DNA from: an uncultured bacterium | GTDB lineage: Bacteria > Acidobacteriota > Vicinamibacteria > Vicinamibacterales > UBA2999 | Length of the DNA stretch: 64,000 nucleotides | Reading direction: 5' to 3' | Assembly (NCBI GenBank): GCA_963923455.1 | Contig: CAWULT010000004.1 | Span: 16,315-80,314, forward strand | Shown: positions 6,501 through 45,124 of the stretch, one piece after another | Layout: each line of letters opens with the position of its first letter | Position numbering within the stretch: position 1 is the first letter of the stretch | Made by a program: the position numbers and the translations under genes | Notes under the pieces: generated by a model | Databases searched by the model: none | What the model was told of the DNA's origin: nothing | The model's input: only the letters and a program-made list of their open reading frames with translations

Positions 6501-6983
6501 CTACTGACGAACCGTCAGCTGCCCCCGGATCTCTCCAGCGGGAGACTGCGTGGAGTGGATGTTGACGTAGCTGTTGCCCCCGACGACGGCCTGGATGGCG
6601 TCATCGACGGTGACAATGCCGATCTCGGGACGCGGGACGAAGGCTGCCTCGCCCACCCGGAAGGTGAGGGTCAGGTCGCCCGTTCGCCCGGGGGGAATCG
6701 GGAAGTTGAAGACGACGGGCCCCGCCACGCCCTTCGGCCCCACGTGGATGTGGCCCGCGGTGGTGCCCGTCGCGAAGTTGAAGAGACGCAGGGACACCGC
6801 CATCTCCCGCGCCCCGGTGTCGACCGAAATCTCAGCCGTCCCGACCGCGCCCGACAGGAGCGCCGGCGTTTCCTCTCCGCTGCTCAGAATCGCTGTCAAC
6901 GTGACCGTCTGCGCTGACGCCGACACTACTCCCATCAGCACGGCCATTAGCGCGAGCGTTCCCAGTACCAGACTTCGCTTCAT
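6501..6983 (-). CDS. CHRD domain-containing secreted protein
   Basis: Signal peptide (MKRSLVLGTLALMAVLMGVVSASA). CHRD-like pattern (LSSGEETP...GTAEI...TAGHIHVGP..AGPVV...NIHS...GEIRGQL). RBS GAGAGGAG before ATG 6983. Confidence 0.8.
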   Translation of the reverse strand: MKRSLVLGTLALMAVLMGVVSASAQTVTLTAILSSGEETPALLSGAVGTAEISVDTGAREMAVSLRLFNFATGTTAGHIHVGPKGVAGPVVFNFPIPPGRTGDLTLTFRVGEAAFVPRPEIGIVTVDDAIQAVVGGNSYVNIHSTQSPAGEIRGQLTVRQ

Positions 6984-7224
6984 GCGATCTCCTCTCGCAG
7001 CGACCCAGCCGCCGGCTGGCGGCGCCGCAGTCGAGGACAGCATGAAGCAGACCAGTCTGCCGGCCAATGGAATCAATGGCTTACGGCAACGCTCGCTCCA
7101 GTCCGCTTACGGCGCGCGAAAGGGGTTTTCCGGGCGCGGCCCATCCACGTACGGCATGGCCGCGGCACCGTCCCGCACTGCGAACCGCGCGGCCCCGCCG
7201 GCGGAACGGCGAGGACCTGAAGGG

Positions 7225-7230
7225 TATAGT
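7225..7230 (+). promoter_or_regulatory. -10-like TATAGT, 6 nt upstream of the SDR ATG
   Basis: GGGTATAGTGAGCGGATG. Confidence 0.45.
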
Positions 7231-7236
7231 GAGCGG

Positions 7237-7977
7237 ATGGAACTGCAGGGCCGGGTAGCCCTGATTGCCGGCGGCACACGGATCGGCGGCCCTGTGGCGC
7301 GGGAGCTGGCGCGGGGAGGCGCCCATGTGGCCGTGGTCTACCGTACGTCGCGGCTGGCCGCAGAGCGCACCGCCGAGGACGTACGCGCGCTCGGGTCCCG
7401 CGCCGTCGTGTTGCAGGCGGACCTGGCCACCATCGACGCCGGCGACCGGGTGGTGACCGAGGTGGTGGCGGCACTGGGCCGGCTCGATGTGCTCGTCCAC
7501 ATGGCCTCCGTCTATCGGCAGCGGGCCTTCGACGTGCTGACGCCGGCCGACTGGGACGAGCAGATGGCCGTGGATCTCCGGTCGGCCTGGCTGTGTGCCC
7601 GGGCAGCCGTGCCGCACATGCGGCGGGTCGGCGGCGGCCGCATCGTCGTCTGCTCGGACTGGGTGGCACGCAGCGGGCGCCCGCGATATCCGGGCTACCT
7701 CCACTACTACGTGGCCAAGGCAGGTGTCATGGCCCTGGCCGAGGCGCTGGCCCTCGAACTCGCGGCCGACGGCATTCTGGTCAACGCCGTGGCGCCCGGC
7801 CCGATCCTGCCCGGTGATTCGGCCACGGCCGAGTACGTCCAGGCCGTCGAACGCGAGACCCCTGTCGGGCGCTGGGGCGGCGGCGAAGAAGTGGCCAAGG
7901 TCATTGGCGCGCTCATCGCCAGCGACTTCGTCACCGGGGAGACGATTCGGGTCGATGGCGGACGCCACGTCCGCTGA
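7237..7977 (+). CDS. short-chain dehydrogenase/reductase (SDR) family oxidoreductase
   Basis: N-terminal Rossmann motif (VALIAGGTRIGG). YxxxK active site (YYVAKAG). NAVAPGPI and C-terminal FVTGETIRVDGG. The track ORF is 5-prime-extended to 6574. Confidence 0.9.
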   Translation: MELQGRVALIAGGTRIGGPVARELARGGAHVAVVYRTSRLAAERTAEDVRALGSRAVVLQADLATIDAGDRVVTEVVAALGRLDVLVHMASVYRQRAFDVLTPADWDEQMAVDLRSAWLCARAAVPHMRRVGGGRIVVCSDWVARSGRPRYPGYLHYYVAKAGVMALAEALALELAADGILVNAVAPGPILPGDSATAEYVQAVERETPVGRWGGGEEVAKVIGALIASDFVTGETIRVDGGRHVR

Positions 7978-8004: not shown

Positions 8005-10239
8005 CTACCTCGTCCGGCTGTCCGGCGCCGCCGACGCGCCAACCGTGCGCAGCACGAAGTCGAGTATCGCCTGCTGCAGGTGCTTCGTCAGTCGTGCGTC
8101 GTCGAATCCGTGGCGCTGGGTCGGGTAGAGCATCATCTCGAAGGGCTTGCCGGCGCGCTGCAATGCGTAGGCGAACTGCACGGAGTTCTGCATGTGGACG
8201 TTGTCGTCCATCGTGCCGTGCACGAGCAGCATGCGTCCCTGCAGGCGATCCGCGGCGAACCGCGGCGCGGTACGCGCGTAGCCGTCGGGATTGTTGCGCG
8301 GCAGCTTCATCAGCCGCTCCGTGTAGATCGAGTCGTAGTCGCGCCAGTCGGTCACCGGGGCCCCGACGACGCCGCCGGCCCAGCTCGTGCTGTGCGTCAG
8401 GGCATAGGCGGTCATGAAGCCACCGTAGCTCCACCCGCTCAGGACGATGCGGGACGGGTCTACGAAGCTCTGCTGCCGCAGCCAGGCGACGCCGTCCTCC
8501 AGGTCCTGCAGTTCGAGCTCGCCGAGCCGGCCGTAGACCGGCCACTGGGACTCGACGCCCTTCGCGCTGGCGCTGCGGTTGTCGAGCATCCAGACGATCA
8601 CGCCCTGCTGCGTGAGCAACTGGTGGAACATGTACTGCGAGCCGCCCCAGCGGTCGCGGACGACCCCCGCGCCGGGCCCGGCGTAGGTGAACTGGTACAC
8701 GGGATAGCGGCGGGCCGGGTTGAAGTCGGCCGGCTTGATCAGCATGCCCTCGAGCATCGCGCCGTCGCGCGCCCGCACCTGCACGAACTCCGGCTTCGCC
8801 AGGGCATAGCGCGTCAAGGCCGGCACCGGGTTCGCATCGATCACCCGCAGCTCCTGGCCGTCCCCGCGGTGCAGGCGCACCTGCGCGGGCGTCGTCGCGT
8901 CACTCCAGACGTCGATGAACTGCGAGAAGTCTGAGTTGAAGATCGCCCGGTGCGTCCCGGTGGCCCGCGACAGCCGCGTCAGGCCCGAGCCGTCCAGCCC
9001 GATGCGGTAGATGTCCATGCCGACGGCACTGCGTTCGGGCGAGGCGAAGAACACGTGGCCGTTTCCGTCCTCGCCGTACAGCGTCGCGACGTCCCATCGG
9101 CCCGTCGTCACCTGTGCCATCCCGGTTCCGTCGGCGCGATACCGGAACAGCTGCCGGAAGCCGTTGCGCTCGCTGATCCACAAGAATGAGCCGTCCGACA
9201 GCCACACCGGGTTGCCGTTCTCGTTCACCCAGGCCTTCGTCGTCTCGCGCAGCAGCCGTCGGCTCGCACCGGTCGCGGCGTCGCCGACGTTCAGGTCCAG
9301 CCACGTCTGTTCCCGGTTCTGCGCCTGGTACACGACTCCGTGTGAGTCGGGCGTCCAGCCGACGTTGACGACCAGCAGGTCGGCTCGGTCGTAGGCCGTC
9401 GTGTCGATCCAGGCCGGGGCGCCGCCGGCGATCCGCACCACGCCGAGCGTCACCTCGGGGTTGGGATCGCCCGCCTTCGGGTAGTCGGTCACTTCGAGTG
9501 CGGGACGATAGGGAAGGTGATCGACGACGGTGTACTCCGGCACCGGACGCTCGTCCAGGCGCAGGAACGCAATGCGGGCGGAATCGGGGCTCCACCAATA
9601 TCCGCGGAACCGGCCGCGCCCGTAGATCTCCTCCTGGTACAACCAGTCGAGCCGCCCGTTCAGGATGGCGTCGCTGCCGTCCCCGGTGAGTGCGCGCTCG
9701 CGCTGCGTGGCGACGTCGACGGCATACAGGTCGTTGCCGCGGAGGAAGGCGACGAGGCGGCCGTCTGGGCTGAACGACGGCTCGTCCTCACGCCCTGCCG
9801 TCGCGGTGAGGCGGACGGCCCTCGACGAACCGAAATCGTAGAAATACAGGTCGTCGGCAATGGTGACCAGCGCCCCGCTCCGCGCCGGGTTCAGCGTCAG
9901 GCCCCGCGCGCGCGCGGCGGTCCGCGCCGCGCCGGCATCGACGCCCGGCAGAGCCGCCAGAGCCGACGCCATCGCGTCGGCAGCGAAGAGCCGCGACTCG
10001 GCACCGGTCGCCGCGTCCACGCGCATCCAGTCGTACCCGCCGTCGCCCCGCCTCGCCCACAGGTAGGTCGAGGTGTCGAGCCAGGACAGGTCCGTCGGCG
10101 GGGTACCGCTGAAGTCGAGCCGCGTGGCCGGGTCGTAGATGACGTCGATGCTGAGCCGCGCCGGGGCCTGTGCGTGCGGCACGGCGCCGGCGACGAGGAC
10201 TGAACCGATGAGCACGGCCAGGCGAAGGCGTCTCGGCAT
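8005..10239 (-). CDS. S9B dipeptidyl-peptidase IV family serine peptidase
   Basis: 744 aa with a signal peptide. DPP-IV N-terminal beta-propeller-type region (WSPDS, WLSDGSFLW). C-terminal catalytic GWSYGG nucleophile elbow, plus D and H regions (HGTMDDNVH, QRHGF). Confidence 0.9.
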   Translation of the reverse strand: MPRRLRLAVLIGSVLVAGAVPHAQAPARLSIDVIYDPATRLDFSGTPPTDLSWLDTSTYLWARRGDGGYDWMRVDAATGAESRLFAADAMASALAALPGVDAGAARTAARARGLTLNPARSGALVTIADDLYFYDFGSSRAVRLTATAGREDEPSFSPDGRLVAFLRGNDLYAVDVATQRERALTGDGSDAILNGRLDWLYQEEIYGRGRFRGYWWSPDSARIAFLRLDERPVPEYTVVDHLPYRPALEVTDYPKAGDPNPEVTLGVVRIAGGAPAWIDTTAYDRADLLVVNVGWTPDSHGVVYQAQNREQTWLDLNVGDAATGASRRLLRETTKAWVNENGNPVWLSDGSFLWISERNGFRQLFRYRADGTGMAQVTTGRWDVATLYGEDGNGHVFFASPERSAVGMDIYRIGLDGSGLTRLSRATGTHRAIFNSDFSQFIDVWSDATTPAQVRLHRGDGQELRVIDANPVPALTRYALAKPEFVQVRARDGAMLEGMLIKPADFNPARRYPVYQFTYAGPGAGVVRDRWGGSQYMFHQLLTQQGVIVWMLDNRSASAKGVESQWPVYGRLGELELQDLEDGVAWLRQQSFVDPSRIVLSGWSYGGFMTAYALTHSTSWAGGVVGAPVTDWRDYDSIYTERLMKLPRNNPDGYARTAPRFAADRLQGRMLLVHGTMDDNVHMQNSVQFAYALQRAGKPFEMMLYPTQRHGFDDARLTKHLQQAILDFVLRTVGASAAPDSRTR

Positions 10240-10246
10240 GGGGGTC

Positions 10247-10252
10247 AGATTA
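10247..10252 (-). promoter_or_regulatory. -10-like TAATCT, 7 nt upstream of the DPP-IV ATG
   Basis: The minus strand reads GTGCTAATCTGACCCCCATG. Confidence 0.4.
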
Positions 10253-10307
10253 GCACCCGGTGTCCCGCGCCGATCGGTCGAATCCGAAACCTGATATCGT
10301 CAGGACC

Positions 10308-11684
10308 GTGACGCGGCTGACATTTCTCGGCGCCGCCCGGACCGTCACCGGGTCGAAGTATCTGCTGACGCACAACGGCCGGCGGGTGCTGTTCGACTGC
10401 GGGCTGTTCCAGGGGCTCAAGGAGTTCCGCCTGCGCAATTGGGAGGACTTTCCGGAGCCGCCGGGATCGATTGACGCGGTCGTGCTCACCCACGCACACC
10501 TCGACCACGTCGGGTACCTGCCGCGTCTCGTTGCCCACGGCTTCGAGGGGCGTGCGTTTTGCACTCCCGGCACCAGGGATCTGTGCCAGCTCGTCCTGCC
10601 GGATGCCGCCAAGATTCAGGAGGAGGACGCACGGCAGGCCAACCGGCACGGCTATTCGAAGCATCATCCGGCACTGCCGCTGTATGACGCAGCCGACGCG
10701 CAGCGTGCGCTGACCCGCCTCCATCCCGTCAGCTATCGGCGTGAGGTCGAGATCGCGGAGGGCGTCAGCGTCGAGTTCGTCCCCGCGGGGCATCTGCTCG
10801 GGTCGGCGTTCGTGCTGGCGCGCCTGAAGGGCGGCCCGACGATCCTGTTCGGCGGCGACCTGGGCCGGTACGGGCGGCCCGTGCTCCCGGATCCGGAGCC
10901 GGCGGCCCGCGCCGACGTGGTCCTGGTGGAGTCGACCTACGGCGACCGCGACCATGCGGAGGACGACAACGGAGCGGCCCTCGCCGAGGTGATTCACGAC
11001 ACGGCGGCTCGCGGGGGCAAGGTCATCATCCCGGCGTTCGCGATCGGTCGCGTGGAGGAGCTGCTCTACTGGATCCGCCGGCTGGAGAAGGAGAGAAAGA
11101 TCCCGGTGTTACCCGTGTTCGTGGACAGCCCCATGGCGACCGAGGCGCTGAAGTACTACACGGCGCGCGTGTCGGAGCTCGACGAGGAGATGCGCCCGTC
11201 GCAGAAGGCCGTCTCCACGTTCGCGACGGCGCGCTTCCAGACCATCGCGTCGCCGCAGCAGTCGAAGGAGCTGACGGCGAGCCGCCGCCCGGCCATCGTG
11301 ATCTCGTCGAGCGGAATGGCCACCGGCGGCCGTGTGCTGCACCACCTCCAGGCGGCGTTGCCCTACGCGCGCAACACGGTGCTGTTCGTCGGCTATCAGG
11401 CGGCCGGCACGCGTGGCCGGCTGCTGGTGGACGGTGCCGCAGAGATGAAGATGCACGGCAGCCTCGTCCCGGTGCGGGCGCGGGTTGCGAAGATCGACTC
11501 GATGTCGGCGCACGCCGACCGAGGGGAAGTGCTGCGCTGGCTGCGCACCATGCCCGCGGCGCCGTCGCGGGTGTGCCTCGTCCACGGCGAGCCCGGCCCG
11601 CTCGAGGCGCTCCAGGGGCTCGTCCGGCAGGAGCTGGGCTGGACGCCGGTGATTCCCGAGCACCGGCAGACGATCGACCTCTGA
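10308..11684 (+). CDS. MBL-fold beta-CASP family hydrolase (RNA-metabolising metallo-beta-lactamase)
   Basis: LTFLGAARTVTGSKYLL, THAHLDHVGYLP (HxHxDH), beta-CASP region, C-terminal SAHAD and VHGEP. The start is uncertain: GTG 10308 is chosen, while the ORF opens at GTG 10260. Confidence 0.85.
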   Translation: MTRLTFLGAARTVTGSKYLLTHNGRRVLFDCGLFQGLKEFRLRNWEDFPEPPGSIDAVVLTHAHLDHVGYLPRLVAHGFEGRAFCTPGTRDLCQLVLPDAAKIQEEDARQANRHGYSKHHPALPLYDAADAQRALTRLHPVSYRREVEIAEGVSVEFVPAGHLLGSAFVLARLKGGPTILFGGDLGRYGRPVLPDPEPAARADVVLVESTYGDRDHAEDDNGAALAEVIHDTAARGGKVIIPAFAIGRVEELLYWIRRLEKERKIPVLPVFVDSPMATEALKYYTARVSELDEEMRPSQKAVSTFATARFQTIASPQQSKELTASRRPAIVISSSGMATGGRVLHHLQAALPYARNTVLFVGYQAAGTRGRLLVDGAAEMKMHGSLVPVRARVAKIDSMSAHADRGEVLRWLRTMPAAPSRVCLVHGEPGPLEALQGLVRQELGWTPVIPEHRQTIDL

Positions 11685-11712
11685 ACGCGCACTGGCGGGG
11701 CCCGACGGACCG

Positions 11713-13662
11713 ATGGACGCCGAATCCTCACTGATGGCCTCGACGCGCCGCTTCCTGCTGGAGCGCGTCGACGACGTGGCCATTGTCCAGATCTACGCCG
11801 ACGGATTCTCGCGTCTGTCGCGGCGCGAGAAGGTGCTGACCTGGCACCTGTACCTGGCCGCGCTCGCCGGCCGCGACATCTACTACGACCAGCGCTACGC
11901 GTACGGCCTCGAGATGCGGGCCGTGCTCGAGGGCGTGCTGCGCCACGCCCGCGGGCTCGACCCGCACGTGCTGGCCGAGCTGCGACGCTACACGAAGCTG
12001 TTCTGGATCGGCAGCGGACCGTTCAACAACGTCACCGCGCGCAAGATCCTGCTTCGGCTGACGCCCGAGGAGCTGACGGCGGCGGTCGCGTCGGCGGCCG
12101 AGCACGGGGCGCCGCTGCCGCTCCGCCCGGGCGAGACGCCCGGGGCGCTCGTCGCGCGCCTCGCGCCGCGGTTCTTCGACCCGGCCGTCGATCCGCTCGT
12201 GACCAACAAGACGCCGGGACCCGGGCGCGACATCCTGCGGTCGAGCGCCAACAACCTCTACGTGGACGTCTCGATGGCCGACTTGGACGGCTTCCGAGAG
12301 CACTACGGGCTGAACTCGCGCCTGGTCAAACGGGACGGCCGGCTCGTCGAGGAGGTGTACCGCGTCGGCGGGCGCTACGACGCCGAGATTCGAAGGGTCG
12401 TGCGGCACCTGACCGACGCGGTGGCGTTCGCGGAGCCCGCCACCGCGGAAGCCCTGCGCGCGCTGATTCGCTTCTACACCACCGGGGAGGAGGCCGACCG
12501 CGTCGCCTACGACATCGCGTGGGTCCGCGATCGGGACTCGAGCGTCGACACGATCAACGGCTTCGTCGAGGTCTACATGGACCCGCGAGGCATGAAGGGG
12601 TCGTGGGAGGCGCTGGTCTACCACGTCAACGAGGAGCGGACCAGGCGCATCCACGAACTCGCGCGCCACGCGCAATGGTTCGAGGATCACATGCCGTGGG
12701 AGCCGCGGTTCCGCAAGCCGGACGTCACGGGCGTGACCGCGCGCGCCATCGATGTCCTCATCGAGACCGGCGATTCCGGGCCGATGACGCCGGTCGGCAT
12801 CAACCTGCCGAACGACCAGGCCATCCGCGAGCGCCACGGCAGCAAGTCGGTGTCGTTGTCGAACGTCACCGCCGCGCACGAGCACGCCACGCCGAAGGCC
12901 ATGCGCGCGGAGTTCTCGTGGAGCGCGGAGGAGGTGGCGCGTGGCGAGGCGTGGGGCGCCTTCTCGCTCGAGCTGACCACCGAGATGCACGAGGTGATCG
13001 GCCACGGGTCGGGGAGGATGGCCGACGGCGTGACCGCCTCGCCGCACGAGCTGCTCAAGGAGCAGTACTCGGCGATCGAGGAGGCCCGGGCGGACCTGGT
13101 GGCGCTGTATTTCCTGCCCGATCCGAAGCTCGTCGAGCTGGGGCTGGTGCCCGCTGAGCACCATGGCGCCATCGTACGGGCGGAATACGAGCACTACACG
13201 CGTGGAGCGCTGGTGCAGCTCAGGCGCGTGCGCGAGGGCTCGCAGATCGAGGAGGACCACATGCGCAACCGCCAGATGGTGGTCAACTGGCTGCGCGCGC
13301 ACACCGACGCGATCGAGCTCCGGCGGCGTGAGGGCAAGACCTACCTCGTGATGGTCGATCCCGTCCAGTTCCGCGCCGGCGTGGCGCGGCTGCTGGCCGA
13401 GGTCCAGCGCATCAAGGGCGAGGGCGATCATGCGGCCGCGCGGGCCTTGATGGAGCGGTACGGCGTGCACTTCGATCCCGCGCTGCGCGACGAGGTGGTG
13501 GGTCGCGTCGACGCGCTGCAGCTGCCGTCGTACACGGCCTTCGTGATGCCGCGGTTGTCGCCGGTCTTGGGCGACGACGGCGAGATCGTCGACGTCGAGG
13601 TCTCCTATCCGTGCGACTTCGAGGCACAGATGCTGGAGTACTCGGCGCTGGGCCGCCCGTGA
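11713..13662 (+). CDS. M49-family (dipeptidyl-peptidase III-like) zinc metallopeptidase
   Basis: 649 aa. Contains HEVIGH (HExxGH) followed by EEARADL (the EExxAE second zinc motif typical of M49). An alternative ATG at 11734 is possible. Confidence 0.8.
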   Translation: MDAESSLMASTRRFLLERVDDVAIVQIYADGFSRLSRREKVLTWHLYLAALAGRDIYYDQRYAYGLEMRAVLEGVLRHARGLDPHVLAELRRYTKLFWIGSGPFNNVTARKILLRLTPEELTAAVASAAEHGAPLPLRPGETPGALVARLAPRFFDPAVDPLVTNKTPGPGRDILRSSANNLYVDVSMADLDGFREHYGLNSRLVKRDGRLVEEVYRVGGRYDAEIRRVVRHLTDAVAFAEPATAEALRALIRFYTTGEEADRVAYDIAWVRDRDSSVDTINGFVEVYMDPRGMKGSWEALVYHVNEERTRRIHELARHAQWFEDHMPWEPRFRKPDVTGVTARAIDVLIETGDSGPMTPVGINLPNDQAIRERHGSKSVSLSNVTAAHEHATPKAMRAEFSWSAEEVARGEAWGAFSLELTTEMHEVIGHGSGRMADGVTASPHELLKEQYSAIEEARADLVALYFLPDPKLVELGLVPAEHHGAIVRAEYEHYTRGALVQLRRVREGSQIEEDHMRNRQMVVNWLRAHTDAIELRRREGKTYLVMVDPVQFRAGVARLLAEVQRIKGEGDHAAARALMERYGVHFDPALRDEVVGRVDALQLPSYTAFVMPRLSPVLGDDGEIVDVEVSYPCDFEAQMLEYSALGRP

Positions 13663-36158: not shown

Positions 36159-36845
36159 ATGGCACTCATCGAGACGCGCGACCTCTGGAAGACGTACGTC
36201 ATGGGCGACGAGGAGATTCACGCCCTGCGCGGGGTCTCCATTCAGATTGAGCGGGGCGAGTACGTGGCGATCATGGGGCCGTCGGGGTCCGGCAAGTCGA
36301 CCCTGATGAACCTGATCGGGTGTCTCGACACCCCGACGAAGGGCAGCTATCTGCTGAACGGCAAGCAGGTCAGCCAGATGAACGACAACGAGCTCGCCCG
36401 GATCCGGAACCAGGAGATCGGCTTCGTCTTCCAGACGTTCAACCTGCTGCCGCGCGCCACGGCGTTGCAGAACGTCGAACTGCCGCTGGTCTATGCGGGC
36501 GTGTCGGCCAAGGACCGCCAGGCGCGGGCCAAGGAAGCGCTGGAGCGCGTCGAGCTGACGTCGCGGATGAGCCACCGTCCGAACGAGCTGTCCGGCGGCC
36601 AGCGCCAGCGCGTCGCGATCGCACGGGCGCTCGTGAACAACCCCTCCATCCTGCTCGCGGACGAGCCGACGGGGAACCTCGACTCGAAGACCGGCAGCGA
36701 GATCATGGCTCTCTTCGCGCGGCTGCACGCGTCGGGCAATACGATCGTGCTGGTCACGCACGAGCCCGACATCGCGGTGTTCGCCCACCGCACCATCTCA
36801 GTGCGCGACGGGCAGGTCGAAAAGGACGTCCGCCGCGCCGCCTGA
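36159..36845 (+). CDS. stand-alone MacB/LolD-type ABC transporter ATP-binding protein
   Basis: Walker [11 protein letters not shown]-loop, signature [15 protein letters not shown], Walker [13 protein letters not shown]-loop VTHE. No FtsX/MacB permease or MFP gene flanks it. Confidence 0.93.
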
Positions 36846-36903: not shown

Positions 36904-37905
36904 ATGCGGATCATCCATGCGTTCCTGGCGGTGGCGGCTGCCGTGCTGACGCTCGCGGCTGTTCAGGCGGCCGGCCAGGCCGCCGGGCAGTCGCGGCGTT
37001 CACCCGGGGCGGCGGCTTCCCGGTCCGTGCCCCGTCGTGACGCGCCTGTCGCGCAGGGGCCGACCTGCGACCGGCGCTGCCTGTTGCAGTTCCTGTTCGA
37101 GTACACCGAGGCCCTCACCGACAACGACACCTCGAGGCTGGCGGTGGCGCCGACGGTGCGCGTGACCAGTAACGGGACCGTGACGACGCTCGGCAAGGGT
37201 GACGTGTGGGGCCCGGCCCGGCGCCTGCCGTACCGGCAGACGTTCGTCGATCCGGTCACCGGCGCGGCTGTGTTCTACGGCGTCGTGACCATGTCGACGC
37301 GGCCCACCCGGCCCGACACGCCCGCGCCCTCCGAGCAGCCCCGGTGGTGGTACTACGTCGCGCGGCTCAAGGTGGAGGCGAGGAAGCTGTCGGAGGTCGA
37401 GGAGATCGCCTACGAGCCGGGCCCCAACGCGTTCGGTGCGCCCCCGTCGTCGCTGACGCTGCCCGACCGCATCTTCGATACCGTGCTGCCGGAGGCCGAA
37501 CGATCGACGCGCGAGCAGCTGTTCGACATCGCCAACCGGTACTTCGACGCGGTGTCGCAGCGGATCGACTACCGGCAGGTGCCGTGGCACCCCGAGTGCC
37601 AGCGGGTGGAACTGGGGGTATTCACGGTCAATGCCCCGCGCACCGCCGGCAGCTGCGGCGGGGAGTTCCAGGTGCCGTCGGTCAAGTGGAACGTCGAGAA
37701 CCGCCGCTTCTACATCGCCGACGTCGAGCGGGGCGTGGTGCTCGCGGCCGGCAACTTCATGGCGCCGAAGGAGTACCCGACCAACAACCCGTCGGTGGTC
37801 ATGGAGGTGTTCAAGGTGCAGGACGGGATGATCCGGCACATCCACGCGTTCTTCCGTGGCAACGGCCAGCCCCGCTCGGGCTGGGGCTCGGGACCGGGGG
37901 CGTAG
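36904..37905 (+). CDS. hypothetical secreted protein, possibly tandem NTF2-like folds
   Basis: Signal peptide with RBS GAGGAGG. Two segments resemble SnoaL/NTF2-like cores (FLFEYTEALTDNDTSRLAVAPTVRVTSNG... and IANRYFDAVSQ...VMEVFKVQDGMIRHIHAFF). The fold call is from memory of the pattern only. Confidence 0.6.
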   Translation: MRIIHAFLAVAAAVLTLAAVQAAGQAAGQSRRSPGAAASRSVPRRDAPVAQGPTCDRRCLLQFLFEYTEALTDNDTSRLAVAPTVRVTSNGTVTTLGKGDVWGPARRLPYRQTFVDPVTGAAVFYGVVTMSTRPTRPDTPAPSEQPRWWYYVARLKVEARKLSEVEEIAYEPGPNAFGAPPSSLTLPDRIFDTVLPEAERSTREQLFDIANRYFDAVSQRIDYRQVPWHPECQRVELGVFTVNAPRTAGSCGGEFQVPSVKWNVENRRFYIADVERGVVLAAGNFMAPKEYPTNNPSVVMEVFKVQDGMIRHIHAFFRGNGQPRSGWGSGPGA

Positions 37906-37947
37906 CCCGACGCCGAGCCGCGGCCGGACGGTCGCGGGGGAGGGGTC

Positions 37948-38829
37948 CTACACGGCGGCCCAGTGGCCCTCGCCGACGGCCACCAGTGCCGCCGACGGGT
38001 CGAACGTCGACGGGTCGAGTGCGATGCGCTGCCGCCGGGCGTCGGGATCGAGCGAGGGAATCGCGCTCAGCAGCGCCCGCGTATACGGATGGACCGGTGC
38101 CGCGAAGATCGCGGCGGTGTCGCCGACCTCGACGATCCGGCCCAGGTACATCACGGCTACCCGGTGGCAGATGTGCTCGACGAGCCGCAGATCGTGCGCG
38201 ATGAAAAGGTAGGTGAGCTTGAGCCGCGCCTGCAGCTCCAGCAGCAGTGCCACCACCTGGGCCTGGATCGAGACGTCGAGCGCCGAGACGGCCTCGTCCG
38301 CGATCACGAGGGCGGGGTTGAGCGCGAGCGCCCGGGCGATGCCGATGCGCTGGCGCTGGCCGCCGCTGAACTCGTGCGGATAGCGGCGCAGGTGCGACGA
38401 CGTGAGGCCCACCAGCGAGAACAGCTCCTCGACCCGAACCCGACGCTCGTCGCGCGAGCCCAGGCCGTGAATGACGAGGGGCTCCTCCACGATGTCGCCG
38501 GCCCGCATCCGCGGGTTCAGCGAGGAATAGGGGTCCTGGAAGACGATCTGCATGTCACGCCGCGCCCGGCGCATGCGCTCCTTCGAAAAGCGCAGGACGT
38601 CCTCGCCGCGGAACCGCACCTCACCTGACGTCGGCTCGATCAGCCGCAGGATGCAGCGGCCCGTCGTGCTCTTGCCGCTGCCCGACTCGCCGACCAGCCC
38701 GAACATCTCGCCCTCGTCGATGACGAAGCTGACGTCGTCCACCGCCCGGACGACGGACGGAGCCCGGAACAGGCCCTGCCTGCGGACGAAGTGCTTCGTC
38801 AGGCCCCGCACCTCGAGAAGGGCGCTCAT
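37948..38829 (-). CDS. peptide/nickel (PepT)-family ABC transporter ATP-binding protein, OppF/DppF-like
   Basis: Walker [10 protein letters not shown], signature [15 protein letters not shown], Walker [12 protein letters not shown]-terminal oligopeptide-ATPase motif [16 protein letters not shown] overlap with the upstream gene. Confidence 0.9.
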
Positions 38830-39638
38830 GACGCCGCGCCGCTTCCGCCCGTGGCAGGCCGCATGCCCGGTACCGCGGCGAGCAGCGACCGCGTGTACGC
38901 ATGGGCCGGCTCACGCAGGATCTGCCTCACCGGACCCTGTTCGACGATGCGGCCGCGGTGCATCACCGCGACGCGTGACGCCATCTCGGCGATGACGCCG
39001 AAGTCATGGGTGATGAGCAGCAGCGCGATGCCGAAGCGGGCCTGCAGCTCGCGAAGCAGGTCCAGCACCTGCGCCTGGATGGTCACGTCGAGCGCCGTCG
39101 TGGGCTCGTCGGCGATCACCAGCGGCGGCCTGCACGCGATCGCAATCGCGATCATCACGCGCTGGCGCATGCCACCCGAGAGCTGGTGGGGATAGTCGCG
39201 TGCGCGGCGCGACGGGTCGGTGATCCCGACCGCCGCCAGCAACTCGACGGCCCGTGCACGGGCATCGGCCCGCGACTCGAGCCCATGGGCCGTCAGGGCC
39301 TCGGCGATCTGGTCGCCCACCCGCATCACCGGGTTGAGGGCCGTCATCGGCTCCTGGAAGATCAGCGAGATTCGCGATCCGCGGAGGTCCCGCATTTCCG
39401 GCTCGGACAGCGCGAGCAGGTCACGGCCCTCGAACAGCACCTGTCCGCCCACGATCTCACCAGGGGGCCGCAGCAGGCGCAGGATGGAGAACGCGGTGAC
39501 CGACTTGCCGCTGCCGGACTCGCCAACGAGGCCGAGCGTCTCGCCGCGGGCGATCTCGAAGCCGACACCGTCGACGGCCGGGTCGCCGCCGCGCCCGAAG
39601 CGGACCGTCAGGCCGCGCACCTCGAGCAGCGCCGTCAT
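38826..39638 (-). CDS. peptide/nickel (PepT)-family ABC transporter ATP-binding protein, OppD/DppD-like
   Basis: Walker [45 protein letters not shown]. The ATG overlaps the mutase stop (ATGA). The track ORF is 5-prime-extended to 41252 in the antisense-free frame. Confidence 0.9.
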
Positions 39639-41206
39639 CCGAGATCCGCCGGGTCGCGGTGCTCCCCGAACACCCCGCGGAGCGCGTCGGCGACCTCGCC
39701 GACGGTGGCGTGCCGCTCGACCGCGGTGATGATCGGCGGCACCAGGTTGTCGCCGCCCCGCGCGGCCCGCGTGACCGCGTCGAGGGCGACCCGCCACTCG
39801 TGCTCGCTGCGACTGGCGCGGACGGCCCGGACGCGGGCCACCTGCTCCCGCTCGACCGCCGGGTCGACGCGGAAGACGTCGACGTGCGGCGGGGCGTCGT
39901 CGGCGAACCGGTTGACGCCGACCACCGTCGCCTCGCCGGCGTCGATCGCCTGCTGCGCCCGGTACGCGGACTCCTGGATCTGCCGCTGGATGAGGCCCGC
40001 GTCGATGGCGGCCAGCGTGCCGCCCGCCGCGTCGATGCGCGCCAGGAGTTCCAGGGCCTCGCGCTCGATCCGGTCGGTCAGCGCCTCGACGGCGTAGGAC
40101 CCGGCGACGGGGTCGACGGTGTTCGCGACGCCGCTCTCGTGCAGCAGGATCTGCTGGGTCCGCAGCGCGATGGTGGCGCTCTCCTCGGTCGGCAGGGCCA
40201 GCGCTTCGTCGCGGCCGTTGCAGTGCAGCGACTGCGTGCCGCCCAGCACGGCGGCCAGCGCCTGCAGCGCCACGCGGACGATGTTGTTGTCCGTCTGCCG
40301 GGCCGTCAGCGTGCTGCCGGCCGTCTGCGTGTGGAACCGCAGCTGCTGGGCCCGTGGGTTGGTGGCGCCGAACCGGTCGCGCATCAGGCGCGCCCACAGC
40401 CGACGCGCCGCCCGGAACTTGGCGATCTCCTCCAGGAAGTCGTTGTGGGCGTTGAAGAAGAAGGAGAGCCGCTCCCCGAAGCGGTCGACGTCGAGTCCGG
40501 CCGCCTGGCACGCCTCGACGTAGGCGATTGCGTTGGCGAAGGTGAACGCCACTTCCTGCACCGCCGTCGCGCCGGCCTCGCGGATGTGGTACCCGCTGAT
40601 GGAGATGGTGTTCCACTGCGGCACCTCGCGCTCGCAGAACGCGATGATGTCGGCGACGACCCGCAGCGAGGGCCGGGGCGGGAAGATGTAGGTGCCCCTC
40701 GAGACGTACTCCTTCAGGATGTCGTTCTGCACGGTGCCGGCCAGGCGGCGGGCGTCGACGCCCTGCCGCCGGCCCACGGCGACGTACAGCGCGATCAGGA
40801 CGATCGCCGTCGCGTTGATCGTCATCGACGTCGACACCTCGGCGAGCGGGATGCCGTCGAAGAGCGCGGCCATGTCCTCGATCGAGTCGATGGCCACACC
40901 GACGCGGCCGACCTCGCCGGCCGCGAGCGCGTGGTCGGAGTCGTAGCCGATTTGCGTCGGCAGGTCGAAGGCGACGCTGAGGCCCGTCACGCCCTGTTCC
41001 AGCAGGTAGCGGTAGCGCCGGTTGGACTCGGCTGCCGAGGCGAAACCCGCGTACTGCCGCATCGTCCAGGGCCGCCCGCGGTACATCGTCGGCTGGATGC
41101 CGCGCGTGAACGGAAAGCGGCCGGGGAAGCCGATGTCGCGACCGGGTTCGGTGCCGGCCAGGTCGTCGCGCGTGAAGTACGCACGGGTGTCCGTCTGCGC
41201 GCTCAT
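39635..41206 (-). CDS. methylmalonyl-CoA mutase, catalytic (large/N-terminal) subunit without B12-binding domain
   Basis: [58 protein letters not shown] (Tyr/Arg positions of the MCM rather than ICM type), [12 protein letters not shown]. The protein ends before any DxHxxG cobalamin-binding domain. Confidence 0.92.
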
Positions 41207-41219
41207 GGAAGCGTCGGCG

Positions 41220-41225
41220 ATTGTA
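41220..41225 (-). promoter_or_regulatory. -10-like TACAAT, 13 nt upstream of the mutase ATG
   Basis: The minus strand reads GCGGTACAATCGCCGACGCTTCCATG. Confidence 0.4.
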
Positions 41226-41245
41226 CCGCACGGCATCCGCGCGGT

Positions 41246-41274
41246 TTGACACCCCTGATGGGGCTCTCTACAAT
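41246..41274 (+). promoter_or_regulatory. near-consensus sigma70-type promoter TTGACA-17 nt-TACAAT
   Basis: TTGACA at 41246-41251, a 17-nt spacer, and TACAAT at 41269-41274. It points toward the small ORF at 41414. Confidence 0.6.
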
Positions 41275-41413
41275 GCGCCAGCCTGCACCTGAGGCGTCCC
41301 CCTGCTCATGCACATCCTCGGCGCTCGTATCCGGCACGATCACCCGCGGGGCGCCGGCGTCCGCCGACCCATGCCCGGGGCCTCCGGCCGTCCGGTCCAG
41401 AAGAGGAGCTGCA

Positions 41414-41716
41414 ATGGATGACGTGGTGAACCAGTTCGCCCGCGAGCTGGCCGATGCGATCGCCGCGGCCGTTGCCGACAACCCGCAGGTCGAGGCCTGC
41501 CGGGCCCGCGCGCGCGAGGCGGGCTTCGACATGCGGGTGACGCTCGAGGCCGTGGTGGGGTTCGTCAACCGCAACGGCGGAGCGCCCGTCACCCGAGTCT
41601 CCACGCCGGCGCGCGTGCTGGTCGGTCGCCACCTGTTCGAGCTGACGGCGAACGATCGGCGATTCCTCCGGTCGCTGCGGATCGGGTGCGACCAGACCCG
41701 CGAAGCCGTCGAGTAG
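41414..41716 (+). CDS. hypothetical small protein (100 aa)
   Basis: ATG preceded by RBS AGAGGAG. GC3-rich codons. It is the 3-prime in-frame end of a 685-aa artefactual track ORF. A near-consensus promoter lies about 140 nt upstream. No family recognised. Confidence 0.5.
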   Translation: MDDVVNQFARELADAIAAAVADNPQVEACRARAREAGFDMRVTLEAVVGFVNRNGGAPVTRVSTPARVLVGRHLFELTANDRRFLRSLRIGCDQTREAVE

Positions 41717-41739
41717 CGCGGATCGCCCGGGCGGGTGTC

Positions 41740-41758
41740 CCGTGGGGCCGGCCCACGG
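41740..41758. terminator. 7-bp hairpin between convergent small ORF and gpmA
   Basis: CCGTGGG-gccgg-CCCACGG. No U-tract. Confidence 0.35.
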
Positions 41759-41767
41759 ACGGCCCGG

Positions 41768-45124
<3,357 letters not shown>

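Follow-up and report, generated by a model that had tools for sequence, protein, structure and literature searches.

A lineage-specific operon arrangement of a split methylmalonyl-CoA mutase subunit and two Opp/Dpp-type ABC ATPases in Vicinamibacterales

Analysis of the window (the whole stretch of 64,000 nucleotides under study) revealed well-known gene families in an operon whose arrangement is lineage-specific: the catalytic subunit of a split methylmalonyl-CoA mutase (MCM) is followed by two ABC ATPases, here called ABC1 and ABC2. The ATPases are probably ordinary importer ATPases of the Opp/Dpp type, with their membrane partners encoded elsewhere, that share a transcript with the mutase because the synteny was inherited; we favour this explanation without regarding it as secure. 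The genes and their junctions are as follows.

39635..41206, minus strand: mutase, split-type methylmalonyl-CoA mutase catalytic (large) subunit, 523 aa; PF01642, TIGR00641
39635..39638, minus strand: ATGA shared by the stop codon of the mutase and the start codon of ABC1, read directly in the sequence
38826..39638, minus strand: ABC1, OppD/DppD-like nucleotide-binding protein, 270 aa; PF00005 and partial oligo_HPY
38826..38829, minus strand: ATGA shared by the stop codon of ABC1 and the start codon of ABC2, read directly in the sequence and kept in relatives
37948..38829, minus strand: ABC2, OppF/DppF-like nucleotide-binding protein, 293 aa; PF00005 and partial oligo_HPY

The initial annotation had described three minus-strand genes joined by two ATGA overlaps, and both the ORF calls and direct reading of the sequence agree with it. 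At the mutase/ABC1 junction a 1- or 4-base overlap is preserved in the related loci L081, L084, L089 and L090. The four-base overlap is the commonest operon junction, and the ATGA junctions found here are therefore unremarkable in themselves. The start first assigned to the mutase, at 41206, is likely to be right, as the product on record has 523 aa and relatives have 520-521 aa; an alternative upstream ATG is located at 41236.

A Pfam scan found PF01642 to be the sole domain of the mutase, matched end to end (positions 7-512 of 512, E 2e-219), and the TIGR00641 score was 748 bits against a cut-off of 303.8. Alignment with 1REQ showed a substrate pocket of the MCM type, with Tyr in RQYAGF, Arg in SRGTY and His in SGYH, plus SVAFD; these residues match Tyr89, Arg207 and His244 (P. 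shermanii numbering) and not the ICM or HCM replacements. The original description of an MCM-type catalytic subunit with a Tyr/Arg pocket and no cobalamin-binding domain is thus borne out. An identity as 2-hydroxyisobutyryl-CoA mutase was also considered and rejected: HcmA is the best solved match, yet it has Ile, Gln and Asp at the specificity positions where the mutase is MCM-type.

In both ATPases the Walker A, Q-loop, signature, Walker B, H-loop and H(A/P)YTRxLL motifs were all found intact by alignment, as had been noted earlier for the Walker, signature and HxYTRxLL motifs. Among solved structures ABC1 is closest to M. tuberculosis OppD/DppD and to E. coli DppD, and ABC2 is named on record as 'ABC-type oligopeptide transport system ATPase subunit'. 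The best NCBIfam match of ABC1 was DppD (PRK11022), at 308 bits against a cut-off of 541, and ABC2 scored 355 bits on the DppF-type subfamily model PRK11308, with a cut-off of 408. Both proteins fall below every curated equivalog cut-off (DppD, OppD, DppF, OppF); their placement in the PepT family is clear and their exact orthology is not.

The oligo_HPY match was partial in the Pfam scan, covering profile positions 1-32 of 65 in ABC1 and 1-37 of 65 in ABC2. Alignment attributed this to a C-terminal truncation in ABC1, which removes the four-cysteine C-terminal domain, and to an internal deletion of about 24 residues in ABC2, which takes out the cysteine motif. The motif is present in E. coli DppD/DppF and in the Pyrinomonadaceae orthologues, which are full-length Opp/Dpp-type proteins with a complete oligo_HPY domain. 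Since these orthologues, as well as ABC1 of the related loci L002-L004, keep the Opp/Dpp C-terminal domain, the short form is derived, by a recent loss within Vicinamibacterales. More than 100 ABC1 homologues of 260-280 aa were found at about 80% identity. Purifying selection on the ATPases is similar to that on the mutase: compared across the two classes, the ATPases are 60-64% and the mutases 65-67% identical. That Vicinamibacterales lost the cysteine-motif domains is a point against the importer reading.

The initial annotation had raised a cobalt/corrinoid-supply link, with the ATPases powering a transporter encoded elsewhere. On this reading the transporter would be a Nik/Cnt-type nickel/cobalt importer, and coupling of the ATPases to the mutase would coordinate cobalt supply with the B12 enzyme. 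The lengths of ABC1 and ABC2 are similar to those of NikD/NikE and CntD/CntF, and the scores on the NikD and NikE models (274 and 273 bits) are not far under the TIGR02770 and TIGR02769 cut-offs of 318.7 and 332.55. However, both ATPases score higher on the Dpp/Opp models, and their shortness is derived from an ancestry in which the Opp/Dpp C-terminal domain was present. No nikABC-like neighbours were found, nor were cobalamin biosynthesis or Nik/Cbi genes detected in 84 kb. No cobalamin riboswitch was detected at the Rfam gathering score over 64 kb or at E<=1 over 37700-42000, and no other Rfam element was found in or around the operon. We consider a cobalt importer quite unlikely; what stands of the proposal is a transporter encoded elsewhere, which is still the most likely arrangement, while the cobalt link is left without support.

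A PepT permease, a binding protein, a B12-binding subunit and MeaB had all been reported missing nearby, and the wider search upheld this. None of them was found in about 84 kb (the window and 10 kb on each side) by Pfam scans of about 40 window ORFs and by gene tables reaching 10 kb past each window end. Six-frame tblastn with E. coli DppA/B/C, which covered the window, its extensions and 87 loci, found no similar sequence, and six-frame tblastn of the window gave no match to the B12 small subunit, MeaB or epimerase. A PepT permease or binding protein was likewise absent from about 1.3 Mb of related loci. This absence from the window, the 20 kb of extensions and the related loci counts against the importer reading, which assumes a remote partner. 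The literature search on orphan Opp ATPases of Acidobacteria or Vicinamibacter turned up no specific account.

The absence of these partners is not unusual, judging from other loci. It had been stated that split mutases normally adjoin the B12 subunit and MeaB, which is overstated: the B12 subunit was within reach of the mutase in only 21 of 80 species loci and MeaB in 17 of 80, and no sampled mutase locus of Acidobacteriota had the B12 subunit, MeaB or epimerase, lineages without the ATPases included. For transporters, the TIGR03434 'acidobacterial duplicated orphan permease' (ADOP) family documents that permease and ATPase genes are routinely separate in this phylum. Unlinked, shared importer ATPases have precedents in MsiK of Streptomyces and MsmX of Bacillus.

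These findings bear on whether ABC1 and ABC2 are transport proteins at all. The pair might instead act outside transport and independently of the mutase, for example in regulation or as another kind of soluble ABC protein, the adjacency being neutral synteny. This would agree with a membrane partner being seen nowhere in the data and with the loss of the iron-sulfur motif domains. Against it stands the very high similarity to bona fide importer subunits across the whole ATPase core, and, as unlinked ATPase genes are common in the phylum, a missing neighbour is weak evidence; we judge this role unlikely.

Had the arrangement been peculiar to this genome, this would have told against the initial annotation by its own reckoning; instead, Vicinamibacterales and most Pyrinomonadaceae have conserved it. 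All Vicinamibacterales contigs examined that were long enough kept the trio, overlaps included. The trio is looser in most Pyrinomonadaceae, where unrelated exported-protein genes (polysaccharide deacetylase, TonB_C, VanZ or DUF3828) lie between the mutase and ABC1. In Terriglobia, Bryobacterales, Thermoanaerobaculia and several Blastocatellia the mutase is not followed by the ATPase pair, and the trio was absent from all lineages sampled beyond Vicinamibacterales and Pyrinomonadaceae. The genes glgC, eno and gpmA do not adjoin the mutase in Pyrinomonadaceae. The mutase-ATPase adjacency thus outlasted the surrounding synteny between two classes, which hints at some selection for linkage and is a further observation against the importer reading.

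Such selection might be expected if the ATPases formed a soluble heterodimer acting on the mutase (in cofactor loading, subunit assembly or repair) and replacing or assisting MeaB, as PhnK/PhnL act on C-P lyase. The overlaps conserved throughout Vicinamibacterales, the adjacency that survives in the second class and the lack of a permease nearby are consistent with such a role, and PhnK, a detectable relative (E 1e-45), is an example of this ATPase lineage in the service of a soluble enzyme. If true, it would explain why two acidobacterial classes have the pair beside the mutase and why, in one of them, the genes are translationally coupled. However, transporter subunits are far closer (E 1e-125 to 1e-80) than PhnK; the PhnK model TIGR02323 gave 137 bits against a cut-off of 302.85, and no phn genes were found in the window. 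Both ATPases are of the ABC class and not of the G3E (SIMIBI-class) GTPase fold of MeaB/ArgK. The pair is missing from most acidobacterial and all other mutase loci, and comparison of ATPase-linked with unlinked mutases found no discriminating columns and no clade-specific indels. Nor is the absence of MeaB nearby a sign of its having been replaced, being the norm for the phylum. The genes that intervene in Pyrinomonadaceae, the loci without the pair and the comparison of linked with unlinked mutases show that the link between ATPases and mutase is loose. The earlier proposal that the ATPases were recruited in place of MeaB thus found no positive evidence, and we regard an action on the mutase as highly improbable.

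Three further features flank the trio.

36159..36845, plus strand: LolD/MacB-type ABC ATPase, convergent with ABC2; PF00005
41246..41274, plus strand: putative sigma-70-like promoter facing the 99-aa gene; TTGACA, 17 nt, TACAAT, 11/12 positions
41417..41716, plus strand: conserved 99-aa gene, divergent from the mutase; >4400 homologues

The LolD/MacB-type ATPase scored below the cut-offs of the LolD and MacB models and, like ABC1 and ABC2, has no nearby permease gene, a further case of unlinked partners in this phylum. In L002-L004, L016, L081-L084, L089 and L090 it follows ABC2 convergently at 76-89% identity, and it belongs to the conserved block. A protein of 333 aa with a signal peptide matched nothing in the relatives and is an insert specific to this lineage. 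On the other side, the 99-aa gene lies upstream of the mutase and divergent from it in 19 loci that span several classes; it is the most widely conserved neighbour of the mutase in Acidobacteriota, more widespread than the ATPases. Its family comprises 313 clusters at 50% identity, and a Pfam domain was found in none of the >4400 homologues. A model of its product (moderate confidence, pLDDT 70) gave no fold match in the PDB. Both hexamers of the putative promoter facing it are conserved in the Vicinamibacterales intergenic alignment. This gene poses a cleaner question than the ATPases do.

Taken as an importer ATPase pair behind a mutase, the operon may work as follows. The mutase gene encodes the catalytic subunit of a split B12-dependent MCM, whose B12-binding subunit and MeaB would be encoded elsewhere, and ABC1 and ABC2 would make up the nucleotide-binding pair of an Opp/Dpp-type (PepT) importer with permease and binding-protein genes elsewhere. 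A single transcript would begin upstream of the mutase, and the ATGA junctions would let ribosomes ending one gene restart on the next, so that synthesis of the ATPase pair would accompany that of the mutase, in balanced amounts. As a heterodimer, the ATPases would then dock on remotely encoded membrane subunits and drive uptake by ATP hydrolysis, most likely of peptides. The adjacency would be inherited synteny, tightened to overlapping genes in Vicinamibacterales, and may at most reflect co-regulation of peptide uptake with propionyl-CoA catabolism; propionyl-CoA is yielded by valine, isoleucine, methionine and threonine.

For annotation, the locus calls for caution: genes for ABC ATPases, mutase subunits and chaperones routinely lie apart from those of their partners in Acidobacteriota, so that a "missing partner" argument based on model organisms does not hold for this phylum. 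Should whole genomes of these lineages lack PepT permeases, the pair would be a soluble ABC machine, and its place behind a B12 enzyme would be a real lead.

Compared with known mutases, the gene product shares with P. shermanii MutB (1REQ) the same full PF01642 barrel and the same Tyr, Arg and His substrate-pocket residues. HcmA (4R3U) and archaeal McmA resemble it in having no fused B12 domain, but the specificity residues of HcmA, its best solved match overall, are HCM-type. The small subunit, MeaB and epimerase adjoin the mutase in 21, 17 and 35 of 80 sampled loci, whereas none adjoins it here.

The ATPases share the ATPase core, the D-then-F order and the H(A/P)YTRxLL start of the C-terminal region with E. 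coli DppBCDF (8Z1V) and M. tuberculosis OppABCD (8J5Q). They differ from OppD/OppF and DppD/DppF in having no adjoining permease or binding-protein genes and in the four-cysteine domain, which is gone from ABC1 and internally deleted in ABC2. NikD/NikE and CntD/CntF are like them in length and in having no C-terminal cysteine domain, but the shortness of ABC1 and ABC2 is a recent Vicinamibacterales loss, and nikABC-like genes are not found here. PhnK/PhnL (7Z15), bound to the soluble C-P lyase core, represent a related ATPase lineage (E 1e-45) working without a membrane domain; no phn genes are found here, and binding of the mutase by the ATPases would be conjecture. Finally, in MsiK, MsmX and ADOP the ATPase genes lie apart from the permease genes served, as those of ABC1 and ABC2 probably do. 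Those are systems of the sugar (CUT1) and MacB/FtsX families whereas ABC1 and ABC2 are PepT proteins, and by analogy the pair might likewise be shared.

Sequence reading confirmed the core observation of the initial annotation, namely that three minus-strand genes are joined by ATGA overlaps. The trio and the features around it are located as follows:

39635-41206, minus strand: split methylmalonyl-CoA mutase catalytic subunit
39638-39635, minus strand: ATGA overlap, mutase stop/ABC1 start
38826-39638, minus strand: ABC1, an OppD/DppD-like ATPase
38829-38826, minus strand: ATGA overlap, ABC1 stop/ABC2 start
37948-38829, minus strand: ABC2, an OppF/DppF-like ATPase
36904-37905, plus strand: gene encoding 333 aa, the N-terminus resembling a signal peptide
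36159-36845, plus strand: LolD/MacB-type ABC ATPase, convergent to ABC2
41246-41274, plus strand: near-consensus sigma-70-type promoter-like site (TTGACA, 17 nt, TACAAT), facing the small ORF
41417-41716, plus strand: small ORF, divergent from the mutase

The G+C content of the window is about 70%, its nearest relatives are Vicinamibacterales genomes (phylum Acidobacteriota), and its proteins were also found on freshwater-metagenome contigs. NCBI assigns one homologue of a window gene to Vicinamibacterales. The longest contig on record bearing the ATPase genes is 89 kb.

Pfam scanning found that the acyl-CoA mutase barrel PF01642 spans the mutase end to end (E 2e-219), with no other domain, and the TIGR00641 cut-off was exceeded by a wide margin. 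The best solved relative was 4R3U, the large subunit of 2-hydroxyisobutyryl-CoA mutase (HcmA), with the classical mutases ranking behind; that identity was rejected on the pocket residues, since residue-by-residue alignment revealed a methylmalonyl-CoA pocket (Tyr of RQYAGF, Arg of SRGTY, His of SGYH, and SVAFD), whereas HcmA carries Ile, Gln and Asp there. We prefer the start at 41206, because the resulting 523-aa product is the form on record and relatives have 520-521 aa.

The small ORF (99 aa) is a real gene, in view of its homologues, its divergent position across loci, its invariant residues and the conserved promoter-like site, both hexamers of which are conserved among Vicinamibacterales relatives. 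Homologues number in the thousands and form 313 clusters at 50% identity; neither Pfam nor NCBIfam matches any of them. Two distant groups share 18 invariant positions. The predicted structure is of moderate confidence and gave no fold match. In 19 related loci, from Vicinamibacterales, Pyrinomonadaceae, Terriglobia and Bryobacterales plus one from Methylomirabilota, the ORF is divergent from the mutase and upstream of it. Besides the window, the loci with this arrangement include L002-L005, L016, L018, L025, L028, L029, L031, L035, L039, L041, L043, L047, L057, L081 and L084. The ORF accompanies the acidobacterial mutase more widely than the ATPases do, and its product could regulate or assist the mutase. 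The domain also matches five separate stretches of a 903-aa library protein (P0493), and therefore exists as a tandem repeat as well. On the opposite strand, a TACAAT (41225-41220) lies 13 nt ahead of the mutase ATG at 41206 and would leave a very short leader.

The absence of a permease, binding protein, B12-binding subunit and MeaB, reported initially, was upheld by three approaches. Pfam, run on about 40 ORFs across the window, detected neither a PepT permease nor a family-5 binding protein, and no B12-binding domain or MeaB; the gene tables of the 10-kb extensions on either side include none of these. When E. coli DppA, DppB and DppC served as queries, six-frame tblastn gave no match in the window or 87 related loci, some 1.3 Mb of sequence altogether. 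Queries drawn from other loci for the B12 small subunit, for MeaB and for methylmalonyl-CoA epimerase gave none in the window, the extensions or any acidobacterial locus. The premise that split mutases normally sit beside their B12 subunit and MeaB was overstated: these were within reach of the mutase in only 21 and 17 of 80 loci, respectively (epimerase, 35), and no acidobacterial locus was among them. Acidobacterial lineages without the ATPase pair likewise have no adjacent small subunit or MeaB, so this absence is uninformative on the ATPases, and the missing partners of the trio are not unusual. No FtsX/MacB-type permease gene accompanies the LolD/MacB-type ATPase in the window either; in Acidobacteria, permease genes are known to lie apart from ATPase genes (ADOP family, TIGR03434).

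Whether the adjacency extends beyond this genome, a check proposed initially, was examined in 80 species-level genome loci with a mutase, plus metagenome contigs:

Vicinamibacterales genomes L001-L004: ATPase pair directly after the mutase (the L001 contig ends within the first ATPase)
Vicinamibacterales-like L005: contig ends within the mutase; uninformative on downstream genes
Vicinamibacterales metagenome contigs L081-L084 and L089-L091: small ORF, mutase, ABC1, ABC2 and convergent LolD-type ATPase, with 1- or 4-base overlaps
Pyrinomonadaceae-type L016, L020, L022, L025 and L044: pair present, 0.5-2.2 kb past the mutase
Blastocatellia L029, L036 and L072: no downstream pair in the 2.9-8 kb of sequence present
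Terriglobia, Bryobacterales, Thermoanaerobaculia and all other phyla: pair absent

The adjacency is thus conserved, tightly in Vicinamibacterales and loosely in Pyrinomonadaceae, and the arrangement is old and lineage-restricted. In the Vicinamibacterales contigs the trio lies within a larger syntenic block, with glgC, eno and gpmA on one side and acs and ino1 on the other. The glgC-eno-gpmA block is not retained in Pyrinomonadaceae, where the gap holds same-strand polysaccharide deacetylase, TonB_C protein, VanZ or DUF3828 genes. Within the block, conservation is highest for the LolD/MacB-type ATPase gene (76-89% identity in Vicinamibacterales and one Pyrinomonadaceae locus), which directly abuts ABC2 in relatives; the 333-aa gene, which matches no family and is missing from this position in every relative, is therefore a lineage-specific insertion. 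Given that the adjacency outlasted the surrounding synteny in two classes, and that no permease partner was seen in the window, the extensions or the 87 related loci, a soluble role for the ATPase pair keeps a low probability. Alignment of 11 ATPase-linked and 19 unlinked mutases, allowing one exception per column, found no residue common to the linked group and never present in the unlinked one, and no clade-specific indels.

In both ATPases (ABC1, 270 aa; ABC2, 293 aa) the ABC core is complete, with every catalytic motif, and by sequence they belong to the peptide/nickel (PepT) family. The top-scoring models were DppD, YejF and OppD for ABC1 and DppF, GsiA and OppF for ABC2, all scores being under curated cut-offs. 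Only the first half of the oligo_HPY C-terminal region was matched in each, because ABC1 is truncated and ABC2 internally deleted: orthologue alignment revealed that ABC1 of the window's clade ends just past LLAAVPGM, without the whole four-cysteine segment, and that a deletion of about 24 residues removes the motif from ABC2 of all Vicinamibacterales. The motif is kept in ABC1 of L002-L004 and in both Pyrinomonadaceae orthologues. It was lost stepwise, from ABC2 in all Vicinamibacterales and from ABC1 only in the window's subclade. The short ABC1-type form is common (more than 100 homologues of 260-280 aa, about 80% identity).

The initial interpretation is only partly supported by these data. 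Its proposal that the ATPases energise a transporter encoded elsewhere is the best-supported reading, the importer being of Opp/Dpp type with its membrane and binding components encoded apart, while the cobalt/corrinoid-supply link is disfavoured because the NikD/NikE models score below the Dpp/Opp-type ones, the short ATPase form is derived, and no cobalamin riboswitch was found over 64 kb at the Rfam gathering score or around the operon at E<=1. At gathering thresholds Rfam gave 0 RNA families in window 1-64000, tRNA included.

Peptidases are abundant nearby (S9 dipeptidyl peptidase IV, M49 and M23 in window 8005-13662 and in related locus L085; M1 and M16 immediately beyond its edge), as are class I/II aminotransferases, surroundings that fit a peptide-degrading lifestyle. 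At 6574-7977 (plus strand) the longest ORF has 467 aa; its true start is probably internal, as the short-chain dehydrogenase domain covers residues 228-465 only and the matching called gene in L085 has 311 aa.

For the importer reading, the ATPases would share a presumed single transcript with a housekeeping split mutase and be translationally coupled to it, and the permease and binding protein would be encoded at a remote site. The linkage would be inherited synteny; it may have persisted because peptide uptake is used alongside propionyl-CoA catabolism. The feature is an ordinary gene set in a lineage-specific operon. The closest solved structures to its ATPases are the M. tuberculosis OppD and DppD subunits and E. 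coli DppD, with PhnK a far more distant match; unlike ABC1 and ABC2 of the window, E. coli DppD and DppF keep the four-cysteine motif.
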